DNA of 32,000 nt from Candidatus Electronema halotolerans (GTDB taxonomy: Bacteria; Desulfobacterota; Desulfobulbia; Desulfobulbales; Desulfobulbaceae): assembly GCA_942493095.1 (NCBI GenBank), contig OW818675.1, forward strand, positions 2,280,001 through 2,312,000, given 5' to 3'. Shown here in pieces: positions 11,322-14,967 of this stretch. The notes under the pieces were generated by a model. The model did not search any database. It worked only from the letters and a program-made list of their open reading frames with translations, and was not told the DNA's origin. A program made the position numbers and the translations under genes. Within the stretch, counting starts at the first letter, position 1. The number at the start of each line of letters is the position of its first letter.

Positions 11322-11382
11322 GCCAAACCTCCATAAAACTGCTGGTATTGATAAATTGCTTATTCTGGTTCATCTGCAACGC

Positions 11383-11411
11383 AGGATAGAAAGCCCTGCG
11401 GCGCAAGTCAA
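11383..11411 (-). promoter_or_regulatory. Candidate qmoA promoter
   Basis: The minus-strand sense reads TTGACT-17 nt-TATCCT, about 60 nt upstream of the qmoA ATG. This rests on a motif match only. Confidence 0.3.
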
Positions 11412-11435
11412 ACAAAATAAGACGGCCTTGCCGTC
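11408..11435 (-). terminator. Intrinsic terminator downstream of the AT-rich islet
   Basis: The minus-strand sense reads GACGGCAAGGCCGTC followed by TTATTTTGTTTG. Confidence 0.45.
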
Positions 11436-11442
11436 AGAACAT

Positions 11443-11472
11443 AACCTGAGTTCTTTAGGTCGAACTCAGGTT
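11443..11472. repeat. 11-bp perfect hairpin at the qmoA-proximal edge of the islet. It contains one copy of the boundary repeat.
   Basis: The sequence is AACCTGAGTTC-tttaggtc-GAACTCAGGTT. The 14-mer GTCGAACTCAGGTT (11459-11472) recurs inverted at 12776-12789 with a 13/14 match. Confidence 0.6.
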
Positions 11473-11494
11473 AGTGTAACATCAAAATTAATGT

Positions 11495-11818
11495 TCAAGA
11501 AATAGATACCTCGTCAATAGCTTTCCTTACTCTCTTTCTGTTAATTCCAGCAGCCCCATTATAGCATGAACATGCGCATCCTATGTTAAAAATAGGCATA
11601 GAAAAAAAGAGTGGCCAAAAAATTGCACTTAAAAAGAAAAAAAGAATCCAGAAAAAAGTAATAAAAATTGCTCCAATAATCTGCCCCACATATAGGTAAC
11701 CAATAAGAGGAAAGAAAAAACCTAAAAAAACAGCAAGTGCCGGAGATTTTAGTTTTAAACCTTCAATCGCAAGCTGTTCCTCTAAAGCGTACTCATCAGC
11801 TAAAAATTTCTTCTTCAT
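11495..11818 (-). CDS. Hypothetical small integral membrane protein (107 aa, islet gene C)
   Basis: An AAGGAGA SD sits 6 nt before the ATG. A short amphipathic N-terminus is followed by a Phe/Ile-rich hydrophobic block (about 3 helices) and a basic tail (NRKRVRKAIDE). I recognise no enzymatic motif. Codons end strongly in A/T. Confidence 0.7.
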   Translation of the reverse strand: MKKKFLADEYALEEQLAIEGLKLKSPALAVFLGFFFPLIGYLYVGQIIGAIFITFFWILFFFLSAIFWPLFFSMPIFNIGCACSCYNGAAGINRKRVRKAIDEVSIS

Positions 11819-11865
11819 TCCCTATCTCCTTTTTACACAAATACTTATCTTGTATCACAATCACA

Positions 11866-12114
11866 CTACTTATTCCATAGCAAAGTCAAAAAAGCTGCTG
11901 CTATTGTACCAAATGCAATAATTATAGCAGGAAGTATAAATGATGAAAACACTTTGTTGTTCTTGTCCTCATTCAAATCTTCCTTTTCATGACAAGGAGT
12001 CTCAGGATAACAACTGTTATCCATAGAGTTTTCTTGGTTACCATGATAATCTCCTGTGCTAACGTTATTCATGCTCCCATGATAATTCTTAACAGATCTA
12101 TCGTGAATATTCAT
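11866..12114 (-). CDS. Hypothetical tail-anchored membrane protein (82 aa, islet gene B)
   Basis: The ATG overlaps the gene A stop as ATGA. The N-terminus carries the DRSVKNYHGSMNNVSTG motif, followed by an acidic linker and a single C-terminal TM helix (FILPAIIIAFGTIAAAFLTLLW). Confidence 0.65.
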   Translation of the reverse strand: MNIHDRSVKNYHGSMNNVSTGDYHGNQENSMDNSCYPETPCHEKEDLNEDKNNKVFSSFILPAIIIAFGTIAAAFLTLLWNK

Positions 12115-12701
12115 ACCGAGCCTTCCTGTTTTTCGTCTTTATTATTAAATTGATTTTGAACTTTATTACCCGTTCCAACGTTATTCATACTCCCTCCATA
12201 ATTTTTTACAGAGCGATCTTCAAAATTTTCTATAGATTGTTTCTCAATATTAATAAGCACGCTACCTACTCTCCCAGACTCAATGTATTCTGTTACAGAA
12301 TTCATTATTTTTCCTATAAATTCAATATCTCCTGAATAAGCATAAACAACTGATCCAGAATTCATTTCAAAACCAAAGGCATATTTCCGGGGAATAAATC
12401 GTTTTGTAATACCATAGATAGCAACGCCTAAAGGAATAATGCCCAAAATAACTGCCCAAGCATCTCCTGTCGAAAATAGGGCTAACCCAATAAGTGATAA
12501 TAAAACAATCAAAAATATTGGAAATTTTTCTTCTAAAAGCTTGTATTGACCAACACGACTCAAATTATTTATTGGAAAAATTTCTGAACCAAAGTGTATG
12601 CTATAAGGAGTGAGTTCAAGCACCCGAGACTTTGAATGCAGAGGTACTTGTTTATAACGTCCATAATTTCCTAAAAAATCATTTATTGACAAGTAAGCCA
12701 T
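12111..12701 (-). CDS. Hypothetical two-TM membrane protein (196 aa, islet gene A)
   Basis: ATG at 12701 has a GGAGA SD 5 nt upstream; the track ORF starts at a TTG 12 nt earlier. The layout is a soluble N-domain of about 60 aa, a TM hairpin (FPIFLIVLLSLIGLALF / WAVILGIIPLGVAIYGI), a beta-rich C-domain, and a tail with DRSVKNYGGSMNNVGTG. From memory this resembles DUF6232-type proteins; I have not verified that. Confidence 0.7.
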   Translation of the reverse strand: MAYLSINDFLGNYGRYKQVPLHSKSRVLELTPYSIHFGSEIFPINNLSRVGQYKLLEEKFPIFLIVLLSLIGLALFSTGDAWAVILGIIPLGVAIYGITKRFIPRKYAFGFEMNSGSVVYAYSGDIEFIGKIMNSVTEYIESGRVGSVLINIEKQSIENFEDRSVKNYGGSMNNVGTGNKVQNQFNNKDEKQEGSV

Positions 12702-12775
12702 ATTTTTCTCCAAAGCAAGAAACTATAGAATACACCAACTAAGAAAAAACAGAAAAGGAGGAGCAAGGGAGGAGC

Positions 12776-12789
12776 AACCTTAGTTCGAC
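12776..12789. repeat. aprA-proximal copy of the islet boundary repeat
   Basis: AACCTTAGTTCGAC is the reverse complement of GTCGAACTAAGGTT. It differs at one position from 11459-11472. Confidence 0.45.
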
Positions 12790-12840
12790 GTAATGAGATA
12801 GGCAGCTACCTATCTTACAATACTCTGACAAACTTATTGA

Positions 12841-12879
12841 CATAAAATTTCCAGACCCCGCTAACGAGGTCTGGAAATT
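12841..12879 (-). terminator. Intrinsic terminator after aprA
   Basis: A 12-bp perfect stem AATTTCCAGACC/GGTCTGGAAATT with a 10-nt loop runs into TTTTAT on the minus-strand sense. It lies about 75 nt after the aprA stop. Confidence 0.55.
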
Positions 12880-12951
12880 CTTACTGATAAAACTGCGCAG
12901 ACCGCTATGCTGAACAGAGGCTGCAATCAGCCCTGTCCGCAGCCGCTTGGA

Positions 12952-14967
12952 TTAGATCCACGGCTCGGTCTCAACGATGTTGATGCACTCAACCTTCTCG
13001 CACTTCCACTCTTTGGTTGCAGGATCAAAAGTGGAATTGACGAAAGCCTTCCAGTTCTCGTCATCAACTGTCGGGTAATCAGAGCGGTAGTAGAAGCCCG
13101 GATAACGGGATTCCTGACGGAACTCAATGTGACGGATGTGGGTCTCTACACACCAAATGCGGTGATAGTTCTCCCAAGCACGCATCAGCTCATGCAGGTC
13201 GCCCGCAGCCATCTTCTCGGCATCCTCACGCAGCATGCGGAGGAGGTCGAGGCAGATGTTGAGCATCTTGCCGGAGGTCATGTAGTAGGTGGCCACGCCG
13301 CCGCCATACTCATCGGTGGCCTTCATCAGGCGCATCATCAGACCATGCGGCTTGCAGTAGTTGGGGTTGACATCCTGATGGGTGGACGCACCAACATGCT
13401 CCAGATAACGGGTCACTGGAGCGTAGATCTCAGCGGCCAGCTCCTGAGCGGTCTGAGCCAGCTCAGGTTTGAAGTCAGCATGGTCACGGCAATACTTGAC
13501 CAACTGCTTGCCAACGATGCGGCCTTCGGTGTGCGAACCAGAAGAGAACTTGTGACCAGATGCGCCCACGCCGTCGCCAGCAGTGAACAGACCATCAACA
13601 GTGGTCATGCGGTTGTAGCCCCACTTGTACTGATGCGAACGCGGACCGTCAACAGTCGGGACCCAGTCCTCAGCCGGACCAGAAGTCCAGATGCCGCAGC
13701 AGCCAGAGTGAGAACCGAGCATGTACGGTTCGGTCGGCATGATCTCGGAACCGATTTTCTCCGGCTCAATGTTCATGCCCGCCCAGAGGCCAGCCTGGCC
13801 AATGGACATATCCAAGAAGTCTTCCCAAGCCTCAGACTCCAGATGCTTCCAGAACTTCTTCACTTCCTTCTCGTCTTTGCCAGCAGCGCGCATGTCATCA
13901 AGGAAGGAGTTCAAAGCGACATCAGTGGCCATGTAAACCGGGCCGCGTCCTTCTTTGAACTCGTTGACCATCAGATGGTTGCGCAGACAGGTCGGAGTGA
14001 CAGCAGAAGCACCATAAGGCATGAACTTCTTCAGCTCTTCTTTAGCCGCATCGCCCATAGCATAGAACTCGCCATTGCCGTTGGACACTTTAGCCTTGAA
14101 CAGAAGGAACCATGCGCCAACCGGGCCGTAACCGTCTTTGAAACGGGCCGGGGTGAAGCGGTTTTCCATCATGGTCAGGGTGGCGCCAACCTGAGCGCAC
14201 ATGGTGTAGGTGGAACCTGCATTCCAGACCGGATACCAAGCCCGGCCCTTGCCCTCACCAGTGGAGCGCGGACGGAAGATGTTGACTGCGCCGCCGCAAG
14301 CAACCATTGCTGTCTTGCATTTGAAAACATGCACTTTGTTCTCACGAACAGAGAAACCTACTGCACCAGCAATCTGGTTCGGCACGTTCTTGTCAAGCAG
14401 CATCTTGACGATGAAAACGCGCTCCATGATGTTTTCTTCGCCCAGAGCCTTCTTGGCAGCTTCAGCAACGATGCACTTGTAGGACTCACCGTTGATCATG
14501 ATCTGCCATTTGCCGGTGCGAACCGGCTTGCCGCCCTCACGCAGGGTCGGAGCAGGCTTGGAGCCGTCCAGGTTGGAGCCGTCCTCAGCCTTCTTCCAGA
14601 TCGGCAGGCCCCACTCCTCAAACAGCTTGACAGACTCATCCACGTGACGGCCCAGATCGTAGATCAGATCCTCGCGGACAACGCCCATCAGGTCGTTGCG
14701 GACCATCTTGACGTAGTTCTCGATCTCGTTCTCGCCGATATAGGTGTTGATCGCGGACAGGCCCTGTGCAACTGCGCCGGAACGCATCATGGCAGCCTTG
14801 TCAACCAGCATGATCTTCAGGTCAGCAGGTGCCCACTTCTTGATCTCAAAGGCTGCGCCGCAGGCAGACATGCCGCCGCCGACGATCAGCACGTCAGTTT
14901 CATGCTCGACAATCTCAGGATTGGCAACCGCAGGCAGCTCGCCTTTCGGCTTGTTAGGTAAAGCCAT
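12952..14967 (-). CDS. aprA: Adenylylsulfate (APS) reductase alpha subunit
   Basis: The 671-aa ORF has a DVLIVGGGMSACGAAFE FAD motif and flavoprotein length. It lies directly downstream of aprB. Confidence 0.97.
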   Translation of the reverse strand: MALPNKPKGELPAVANPEIVEHETDVLIVGGGMSACGAAFEIKKWAPADLKIMLVDKAAMMRSGAVAQGLSAINTYIGENEIENYVKMVRNDLMGVVREDLIYDLGRHVDESVKLFEEWGLPIWKKAEDGSNLDGSKPAPTLREGGKPVRTGKWQIMINGESYKCIVAEAAKKALGEENIMERVFIVKMLLDKNVPNQIAGAVGFSVRENKVHVFKCKTAMVACGGAVNIFRPRSTGEGKGRAWYPVWNAGSTYTMCAQVGATLTMMENRFTPARFKDGYGPVGAWFLLFKAKVSNGNGEFYAMGDAAKEELKKFMPYGASAVTPTCLRNHLMVNEFKEGRGPVYMATDVALNSFLDDMRAAGKDEKEVKKFWKHLESEAWEDFLDMSIGQAGLWAGMNIEPEKIGSEIMPTEPYMLGSHSGCCGIWTSGPAEDWVPTVDGPRSHQYKWGYNRMTTVDGLFTAGDGVGASGHKFSSGSHTEGRIVGKQLVKYCRDHADFKPELAQTAQELAAEIYAPVTRYLEHVGASTHQDVNPNYCKPHGLMMRLMKATDEYGGGVATYYMTSGKMLNICLDLLRMLREDAEKMAAGDLHELMRAWENYHRIWCVETHIRHIEFRQESRYPGFYYRSDYPTVDDENWKAFVNSTFDPATKEWKCEKVECINIVETEPWI

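Follow-up and report, generated by a model that had tools for sequence, protein, structure and literature searches.

How is the apr-qmo block of the cable bacterium Candidatus (Ca.) Electronema halotolerans interrupted between aprA and qmoA, and do the genes found there belong to the Apr/Qmo electron path? We addressed this in a stretch of 32,000 nucleotides (nt) from this organism (contig OW818675.1, positions 2,280,001 to 2,312,000), referred to below as the window, whose coordinates are used throughout. The aprA-qmoA gap of the window measures 1,630 bp and holds three intact open reading frames (ORFs), A, B and C, each preceded by a Shine-Dalgarno (SD) sequence. These genes form a foreign insertion and are not a component of Apr/Qmo, a conclusion in which we place high confidence. 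That the insertion is, in full, a foreign accessory operon outside the Apr/Qmo path whose products A and B associate by pairing of a shared terminal motif is on balance probable, while the A-B pairing mechanism, taken as a claim of its own, is a tentative proposal. The genes of the interval are all encoded on the minus strand:

15438-15010, minus strand, aprB
14967-12952, minus strand, aprA
12701-12111, minus strand, ORF A, 196 residues from its ATG (GCAAIG_10195), DUF6232-family membrane protein
12114-11866, minus strand, ORF B, 82 residues (GCAAIG_10190), tail-anchored mini-protein
11818-11495, minus strand, ORF C, 107 residues (GCAAIG_10185), two transmembrane (TM) helices
11321-10068, minus strand, qmoA
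10052-7812, minus strand, qmoB
7776-6472, minus strand, qmoC

A first-pass annotation of the window had described about 1.6 kb of foreign-looking DNA between aprBA and qmoABC, with three same-strand ORFs of 196, 82 and 107 residues, SD sequences for each, an ATGA overlap between A and B, and small integral or tail-anchored membrane products, and our recalculation agrees with that description. The ORFs are identical to the three NCBI proteins listed above, each of them annotated as hypothetical, on a 3.2-Mb contig. Their SD motifs (GGAG, GGAAGG and AGGAG) lie 6-8 nt 5' of the ATG codons, the A stop and B start overlap as ATGA with B translationally coupled to A, and by a hydropathy scan A has a TM hairpin, B a single TM helix at its C-terminus, and C two such helices. 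Also exact on recount were two spot values of GC content (19/60 at 12121-12180 and 38/60 at 13201-13260), and the reported switch to A/T-ending codons is seen in all three genes: A, B and C have GC 0.33-0.34 and third-position GC (GC3) 0.21-0.30, against GC 0.55-0.58 and GC3 0.70-0.73 for aprB, aprA, qmoA, qmoB and qmoC. The insert as delimited below (1,395 bp, GC 0.340) lies ~8.7 standard deviations below the mean of the remaining 1,395-bp segments of the 32 kb (mean 0.566, standard deviation 0.026, minimum 0.513). A 200-residue form of A beginning at a TTG was discarded, given that all homologues begin MAYLS, that the SD precedes the ATG and that the longer form is absent from the protein collection.

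The placement of this DNA was resolved by comparison with related genomes. A QmoA scan of the GTDB species representatives returned 80 Desulfobulbales loci, 77 of which have aprA and qmoA on one contig. The spacer between the two genes spans 173-411 bp in 76 of these 77, in keeping with the earlier statement that apr and qmo are normally contiguous, and A, B and C are encoded in none of the 77 other apr-qmo loci, so that they are not an ancestral component kept across the family with host-like codon usage. Among the loci lacking the cassette, as we term the inserted genes with their leader and terminal hairpin, are Ca. Electronema sp. KV and five Ca. Electrothrix genomes. The first of these, a close relative (locus L004), has a spacer of 231 bp and provides an empty site: positions 5621-5885 of L004 align with 13100-12840 of the window and positions 5880-6119 with 11444-11203, and the insert therefore corresponds to window 11445-12839. 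A single TTATGT hexamer is present in this empty site (...attttatgttatgag...), and in the window the hexamer stands on both flanks of the insert. The elements of the junctions, in order of transcription, are given here, with L001, L002 and L003 denoting further loci that are described in the paragraph on copies of the cassette:

12846..12879, minus strand, aprA intrinsic terminator hairpin (inverted repeat I7; folding free energy, dG, -25.5 kcal/mol, z = -7.8), followed by UUUUAU
12840..12845, minus strand, left direct repeat TTATGT, from comparison with the L004 empty site
11445..12839, minus strand, inserted AT-rich segment of ~1,395 bp, GC 0.34, comprising leader, A, B, C and terminal hairpin
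12702..12839, minus strand, cassette leader upstream of A, of which the ~100 nt nearest A are common to L001, L002 and L003
11442..11473, minus strand, terminal hairpin with a perfect 12-bp stem, TAACCTGAGTTC ... GAACTCAGGTTA (inverted repeat I12)
11439..11444, minus strand, right direct repeat TTATGT, from comparison with the L004 empty site
11411..11435, minus strand, second terminator-like hairpin, GACGGCAAGGCCGTC then TTATTTTGTT, in host spacer just downstream of the insert
11322..11438, minus strand, host qmoA leader, 90% identity to L004, with a sigma-70-like TTGACT-17-TATCCT at 11411-11383 (promoter scan)

The aprA terminator hairpin is host sequence, being conserved in L001, L004, L005 and L008, and the second hairpin downstream is homologous to the L004 spacer. 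At the insert end, the 3' arm of the terminal hairpin abuts the right TTATGT; considered jointly, the hairpins at 11473-11442 and 11435-11421 have a dG of -29.8 kcal/mol (z = -6.5), the second being followed by UUAUUUUGU. The terminators noted previously on both sides were thus recovered, as a hairpin at 12879-12846 and a double hairpin at 11473-11421. Because of its 90% identity to L004, the qmoA leader is judged to be intact. The cassette leader (12702-12839) shows no stable RNA fold (z = -0.8), and an Rfam scan of 11000-13200 returned only a chance SCARNA4 match (E = 0.8). With respect to the route of entry, insertion sequences, transposons and miniature inverted-repeat transposable elements are marked by terminal inverted repeats and/or a transposase together with a target-site duplication. 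We observed a 6-bp direct repeat, TTATGT, without terminal inverted repeats at the ends or a transposase in the 1.4 kb; the nearest transposase, of the IS66 family, lies ~8 kb away (20970-22478, minus strand). Integron attC sites extend over at least 57 nt and possess imperfect R''-L''/L'-R' arms, extrahelical bases and a GTTRRRY core. An attC reading of the 3' hairpin was rejected on these grounds, as the hairpin is 32 nt long with a perfect 12-bp stem, the adjacent GTTATGT deviates from GTTRRRY, and the crossover as deduced from the empty site does not fall between G and TT. We also observed a 21-nt inverted repeat, I2 (12776-12796 / 11452-11472; 86% complementary), which spans most of the insert and is conserved in L001; its right arm lies inside the terminal hairpin and its left arm is internal, ~45 nt inside the left junction, and it may be, for example, the remnant of a recombination site.

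Copies of the cassette in other genomes were rare. Protein searches covering 5.8 billion proteins found only four relatives of the A subgroup. A metagenome contig (JGI 3300045563; L001) shares the arrangement of the window, with the aprA 3' end followed by the same terminator and the same junction, and then by A, B and the start of C. Homologues in the other loci do not neighbour apr or qmo: in L002, A lies downstream of a Uma2-family gene in DNA of 45-50% GC, and in L003 the genes A, B and C are followed by an Unstab_antitox/ParE toxin-antitoxin pair (1630-2144). The A homologue of L003 (294-866) is split into ORFs of 63 and 123 residues by an in-frame stop or a frameshift near 485-495, with B and C intact. 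A further relative, P0024, came from a profile search and belongs to the gammaproteobacterial symbiont Ca. Kentrum sp. SD (L084). There, an A homologue of 39% identity is followed by a previously uncalled B homologue (L084:5287-5520) overlapping it by 17 nt, without C. The islet in this genome has a GC of 0.40-0.45 versus 0.55-0.70 in its flanks, and is accompanied by a CHAT-TPR gene, moaD/moaE, an AAA-ATPase_like gene and a Phd/PIN pair. Since the cassette turns up in unrelated surroundings, a gammaproteobacterial genome included, we identify it as mobile cargo and not as an Apr/Qmo accessory. Two JGI metagenome scans, one with the A alignment and one with the C alignment, found no relative; ORF C (P0004), looked up by exact sequence among the collected contigs, had no gene on record, and the genome paper of Ca. 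E. halotolerans does not mention the islet.

The spacer itself was also found to receive other cargo. An equally close relative, Desulfobulbaceae bacterium S01.Bin068 (L005), carries a different AT-rich insert of ~700 bp (GC 0.35) in the same spacer (5199-5895), encoding an unrelated protein of ~136 residues that has a TM helix at its N-terminus and is helical in its C-terminal part. The frame of this ORF, which has no Pfam or PADLOC family match, is broken in an A-run at ~5519-5537 and may reflect an assembly error or a pseudogene. Given this different cargo in the same spacer, the site behind the aprA terminator is therefore a recurrent landing site, or hotspot. Two observations on the copies are added here. 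In a comparison of the aprA 3' end between the window and L001:2-181, the synonymous divergence (dS) was ~0.77, from a small sample of 34 sites, and exceeded that of cassette gene A (0.14-0.40); the cassette may be younger than the split of the hosts, or may have been exchanged since. Upstream of the A homologue of L084, at 4059-4343, short repeats translate on the two strands to ...PVISTEGRDL... and ...KISPFGRDDR..., which points to a repetitive element where the AT-rich islet borders its flank.

To what extent the inserted genes are maintained was assessed from the ratio of non-synonymous to synonymous divergence (dN/dS), calculated by the Nei-Gojobori method between cassette copies. Residues 1-62 of A have a dN/dS of 0-0.09, with 0/146 non-synonymous and 5/40 synonymous changes between the window and L001; residues 63-142 of A have a value of ~0.3, the TM segment of B ~0.11, and C 0.26-0.36. 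The tail of A and the N-terminal part of B evolve rapidly (dN/dS 0.3-1.0). On the basis of these low ratios, A, B and C are considered functional genes under purifying selection.

Protein A could be assigned to a family. It belongs to Pfam DUF6232 (PF19744), scoring 36.4 bits against a gathering cut-off of 27.4 over residues 31-137 (profile positions 4-114 of 117). Two relatives, P0001 (32.1) and P0002 (34.1), likewise exceed the cut-off, and the Ca. Kentrum homologue falls just short of it at 24.9. A, P0001 and P0002 cover nearly the whole profile; the subgroup in the window is very rare and differs from DUF6232 in its N/G-rich tail, of which the downstream gene encodes a second copy. An AlphaFold2 model of A from five sequences reached a predicted local distance difference test score (pLDDT) of 63.6 overall and 70-87 in the core, an earlier run from three sequences (pLDDT 43) having been unusable. 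In the model, five predicted beta strands precede a TM hairpin (62-101), after which come two further strands, a helix and a disordered N/G-rich tail (pLDDT 27-32); as modelled, the core looks like a beta-sandwich split by the membrane hairpin. Foldseek matches of A to PH/GRAM-containing structures (2yf0, 3v5w) were weak, with template-modelling scores of 0.26-0.29, and were not taken as evidence, a SLATT_4 match (E = 0.22) was dismissed as hydrophobic-helix noise, and a sequence search of the PDB with the A profile gave no match. Within A and B, we delimited the following segments:

12402..12530, minus strand, TM hairpin of A, ~residues 58-100 (hydropathy scan; AlphaFold2 helices 62-77 and 81-101)
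12168..12218, minus strand, A-tail motif DRSVKNYGGSMNNVGTG, residues 162-178 (direct repeat D1)
12052..12102, minus strand, B-head motif DRSVKNYHGSMNNVSTG, residues 5-21, partner of the A-tail motif
11875..11949, minus strand, C-terminal TM helix of B (FSSFILPAIIIAFGTIAAAFLTLLW), its most conserved part

Homologues of B occur in L001, L003 and L084. Protein C contains the motif KSPxLAxFLGFFFPxIGxLYVG, a second TM helix and then CYNxAxxxN, and aligns over its full length with relatives of ~100 residues that have two TM helices and the family motifs KSPxLAxxLGFFFPxIGxLYxG and CYxxAxxxN. No Pfam model matches C itself; of the 13 relatives in its alignment, 5 give weak matches to DUF6677 (best E = 0.0065), and weak matches to DUF5683, DUF2628 or TM2 come from single relatives. 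In common with DUF6677/DUF5683/TM2 modules, C has a first-helix motif K-x-P-x-x-A-x-x-L-x-F-x-x-P-x-x-G-x-x-Y followed by a second TM helix, and a two-TM module of this type also occurs N-terminally in signal-peptidase-like proteins. From these sequence resemblances C is weakly assigned as a DUF6677/TM2-like protein and an optional part of the cassette, absent in Ca. Kentrum. A UbiA match to C (E = 0.005) was attributed to hydrophobic-helix noise, and a PADLOC match of the Kentrum B protein to BrxA (E = 0.02 over 26 residues) was spurious. Scanning A, B and C against NCBIfam produced no significant match, and no endolysin or recognisable toxin was found.

A feature linking A and B emerged from the comparison of their termini. 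The C-terminal tail of A and the N-terminus of B hold a common motif of ~20 residues, corresponding in the DNA to a 59-nt direct repeat with 76% identity, and this motif was found in all four loci having both genes, as listed with the number of identical positions:

Window: A tail DRSVKNYGGSMNNVGTG, B head DRSVKNYHGSMNNVSTG, 15/17
Ca. Kentrum (L084): A tail DRSITNTGIIGGNAQSG, B head DRSITNTGIIAGNVQSG, 15/17
L003: A tail DRSVTNTGTIGGDVTSG, B head DSSVTNKGNIGGDVNTG, 12/17
L001: A tail DRSITNTGFMGGDVISG, B head DKSVRNDGGIIHGPVIT, weaker, with one gap needed

The variant present in the window is specific to its locus, sharing only 6-8 of 17 positions with the motifs of other loci, yet it occurs in both A and B. 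Codon differences between the A-tail and B-head copies comprise 6 synonymous and 2 non-synonymous in the window, and 10 and 5, respectively, in L003; this synonymous excess argues that the match is kept at the protein level and not only by recent gene conversion. In composition the motif favours G, N, D, I, S, T and V (G 17%, N 12.5%, I 10%, V 7%, Q 3.7%, K 3%, P 0.5%, L 0%). The A-tail/B-head repeat and the DUF6232 membership of A are additions to the first-pass annotation.

We compared this arrangement to known systems. Bacterial amyloid-signalling motifs (BASS) in Bell/NLR pairs are C-terminal in one protein and N-terminal in its neighbour, the two being encoded by collinear genes that overlap in 42% of pairs; N, G, Q, V and I are over-represented in these motifs, and K, P and L are scarce (doi 10.1101/2020.01.06.895854). 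Amyloid-signalling motifs are also part of Bab/Agp, an abortive-infection system of E. coli (doi 10.1101/2024.11.07.622273). Like these, A and B share a motif of ~20 residues at the upstream C-terminus and the downstream N-terminus, are encoded by collinear overlapping genes and include one membrane-targeting partner; the A/B motif also displays the composition bias of BASS and their conservation within pairs, for which a shared stretch of at least 15 residues was asked. In a BASS-type pair the protein with the N-terminal motif would be an NLR-like (NB-ARC/NACHT) or other sensor, and the one with the C-terminal motif would bear a Bell/HeLo-type or enzymatic effector domain. Here, the partner with the N-terminal motif, B, has only 82 residues, made up of motif, linker and TM anchor, and A is a DUF6232 protein. 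BASS6 alone was compared as a profile and the likeness to BASS4 was judged by eye, with individual BASS4/BASS6 instances, e.g. NVNTGNISAGGNVSIGD and GERAVAAGTNTGIIQTGDNAR, appearing similar. Since the BASS6 profile gave no signal and NLR, TPR, Bell and enzymatic domains are missing, the cassette cannot be filed as a BASS system; by analogy, it at most works like one. As a genomic islet at a hotspot, the cassette shows the familiar abrupt break in GC and GC3, a precise empty site, short direct repeats and different cargo in L005, but neither an integrase, a transposase nor a tRNA target accompanies it, and terminal inverted repeats and an attC-like site are absent too. It is also unusual in lying within aprBA-qmoABC, a block that does not otherwise vary. 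In genomic terms we regard it as a small islet of ordinary kind, set in a place that is unusual and has been used recurrently. A membrane protein encoded beside aprBA, AprM, is the APS reductase anchor in some sulfur oxidisers (PMC10504309). In the window, by contrast, QmoABC is complete, and A, B and C are not linked to apr in L002, L003 and L084. AprM is in addition a much larger multi-helix protein, its gene lies upstream of aprB, and it replaces Qmo.

Our preferred explanation is that a self-contained, horizontally acquired operon of three genes inserted into an ancestral aprA-qmoA spacer of ~230 bp, at a permissive spot bounded by the aprA terminator and the intact qmoA leader. The conserved core is the A and B pair, with C as an optional partner. 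A, anchored by its TM hairpin, and B, tail-anchored with a cytoplasmic N-terminus, could associate at the membrane through homotypic pairing of the tail and head motifs, conceivably as beta strands or in a cross-beta form as in paired amyloid-signalling motifs. A and B, together with C in this lineage, would then constitute a membrane-acting accessory module of conflict, stress or cell-death type and not a metabolic one; no more than analogy and the neighbours found elsewhere (toxin-antitoxin, CHAT-TPR) speak for a role in conflict or cell death. Several findings weigh against this explanation. Within the insert there is no recombinase, and neither terminal inverted repeats nor an attC-like site, and the window copy of the leader (12740-12770) lacks ~57 nt that are conserved in L001 (395-455), L002 and L003. 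Searched by tblastn with A, neither the 50,697 phage records nor the 72,556 plasmid records yielded a match, and scans of IMG/VR viral contigs with A, the C alignment and the A10 alignment found no relative. PADLOC contains no family matching A, B or C of the window, the Kentrum A protein or the L005 ORF at E <= 1, and PHROGs gave one weak match only, of C to phrog_10292, a family of unknown function (E = 0.005). Foldseek of the A model against PDB and BFVD found nothing at E <= 0.001; a literature search on DUF6232, a family without functional annotation, retrieved no paper. With regard to motif pairing, the permutation test over four loci is weak, the observed pairing tying for the maximum with 2 of 24 permutations, and gene conversion between adjacent repeats could alone keep the motifs alike. 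A and B have no NLR, TPR, Bell/HeLo, TIR, CHAT or enzymatic domain, and a hidden Markov model (HMM) built from 21 published BASS6 motifs matched neither A nor B among 11,673 ORFs (top E ~1-10, to unrelated ORFs).

Four other explanations were weighed against the same evidence. The first-pass annotation had also raised the possibility that the three genes are a lineage-specific membrane accessory of the Apr/Qmo path, which might act as an anchor or organiser of AprBA/QmoABC in a cable bacterium running the pathway in the oxidative direction. Their exact position between aprA and qmoA on the same strand, the membrane nature of all three products and the retention of the arrangement in a second organism (L001) are what this would predict. 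It is nonetheless extremely improbable, as the cassette is missing from all 77 other Desulfobulbales apr-qmo loci, including those of the other cable bacteria sampled, recurs outside apr contexts in L002, L003 and Ca. Kentrum (beside Uma2, ParE/antitoxin, CHAT-TPR and moaDE genes), is foreign in composition and separated from aprA by a strong terminator, and has an unrelated counterpart at the same spot in L005. The alternative raised alongside it, that of a horizontally acquired cassette, is upheld by the empty site in L004 and by recurrence in non-apr contexts and another phylum; that it rides on aprBA transcription, as had been pictured, is unsupported, and the insert sits behind the strong aprA terminator. 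The functional guesses offered with the cassette (phage exclusion or abortive infection, toxin/immunity, holin-like) likewise gained no support from PADLOC, PHROGs, or the phage, plasmid and viral sequences searched. Regarded as a functionless passenger, i.e. decaying foreign DNA tolerated in a neutral intergenic site, the insert would be expected to be AT-rich and without known function, and the leader deletion in the window copy and the disrupted A of L003 fit with this. Three intact ORFs with SD sites, dN/dS ratios well below 1, the absence of non-synonymous change in the N-terminal region of A between the window and L001, and the conservation of the A and B pairing across phyla make such a passenger very unlikely.

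An addiction or lysis module, with B or C as a hydrophobic membrane toxin or holin-like protein and A as a membrane antidote or regulator stabilising a selfish islet, would explain the small size of the proteins with their one or two TM helices and charged ends, the translational coupling of A and B, the toxin-antitoxin modules adjoining in L003 and L084, and the weak PHROGs match of C. As no significant similarity to a toxin, holin or immunity family and no endolysin were detected, and the pseudogenised A beside intact B and C in L003 is unfit for an essential antidote, we regard this as quite unlikely. The remaining explanation extends the pairing of A and B into an amyloid-signalling pair of new architecture for cell death or abortive infection, in which a trigger would turn one motif into a cross-beta template capturing the other, and the TM hairpins of A and/or the TM helices of B would thereby cluster into a membrane lesion. 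It draws on the matched C- and N-terminal motif of ~20 residues in overlapping collinear genes, N/G/V/I-rich, poor in L and P and co-varying within loci; on a known paradigm with the same gene layout and similar BASS4/BASS6 instances; and on a multicellular host and conflict-gene neighbours elsewhere (CHAT-TPR, toxin-antitoxin). However, the BASS6 HMM gave no signal, there is neither an NLR, TPR or other sensor nor a Bell/HeLo domain, the modelled A tail has pLDDT < 35, Ca. Kentrum is not multicellular, gene conversion offers a neutral alternative, and no defence-database (PADLOC) match was obtained, such that this reading is unlikely. Its more specific form, in which A and B would be an undescribed amyloid-signalling-type pair that is sensor-less, with both partners anchored in the membrane and signalling to each other through the matched N/G-rich cross-beta motif, and that moves between phyla as an AT-rich mini-cassette acting as a minimal switch for cell death or abortive infection, lodged here among the core sulfur-oxidation genes of a multicellular cable bacterium, is also improbable.

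For the genomics of cable bacteria, the invariant aprBA-qmoABC block can tolerate foreign cargo, and the halotolerant Electronema clade gains such cargo repeatedly at one spot, behind the aprA terminator and ahead of the qmoA leader. A, B and C should consequently not be annotated as sulfur-pathway components. The cassette also offers a first concrete handle on DUF6232, in the form of a conserved, translationally coupled partner with an N-terminus mirroring the tail of the DUF6232 protein. The motif pairing of A and B is the part worth following up, in that it provides a directly testable interaction hypothesis and possibly extends amyloid-type signalling to NLR-free pairs made up of membrane proteins only. 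Should the pairing prove to be gene conversion and nothing more, what is left is a small genomic islet of the ordinary sort.

Further features of the window were recorded in passing. The ~57-nt leader segment missing from the window copy of the cassette includes TTTACT...TATGCT, possibly the cassette's own promoter. A 684-residue ORF antisense to aprA (12907-14961, plus strand) was judged to be probably a by-product of the GC-rich coding sequence on the other strand and not a gene. The IS66-family transposase at 20970-22478 is intact (DDE_Tnp_IS66, zf-IS66, DUF6444) and is adjoined by a 510-residue TPR protein at 22966-24498. Directly downstream of qmoC lies a tuf-nusG-rplA-rplJ translation cluster (1357-5787, minus strand; EF-Tu at 4597-5787), which therefore places the apr-qmo block in a very highly expressed neighbourhood.

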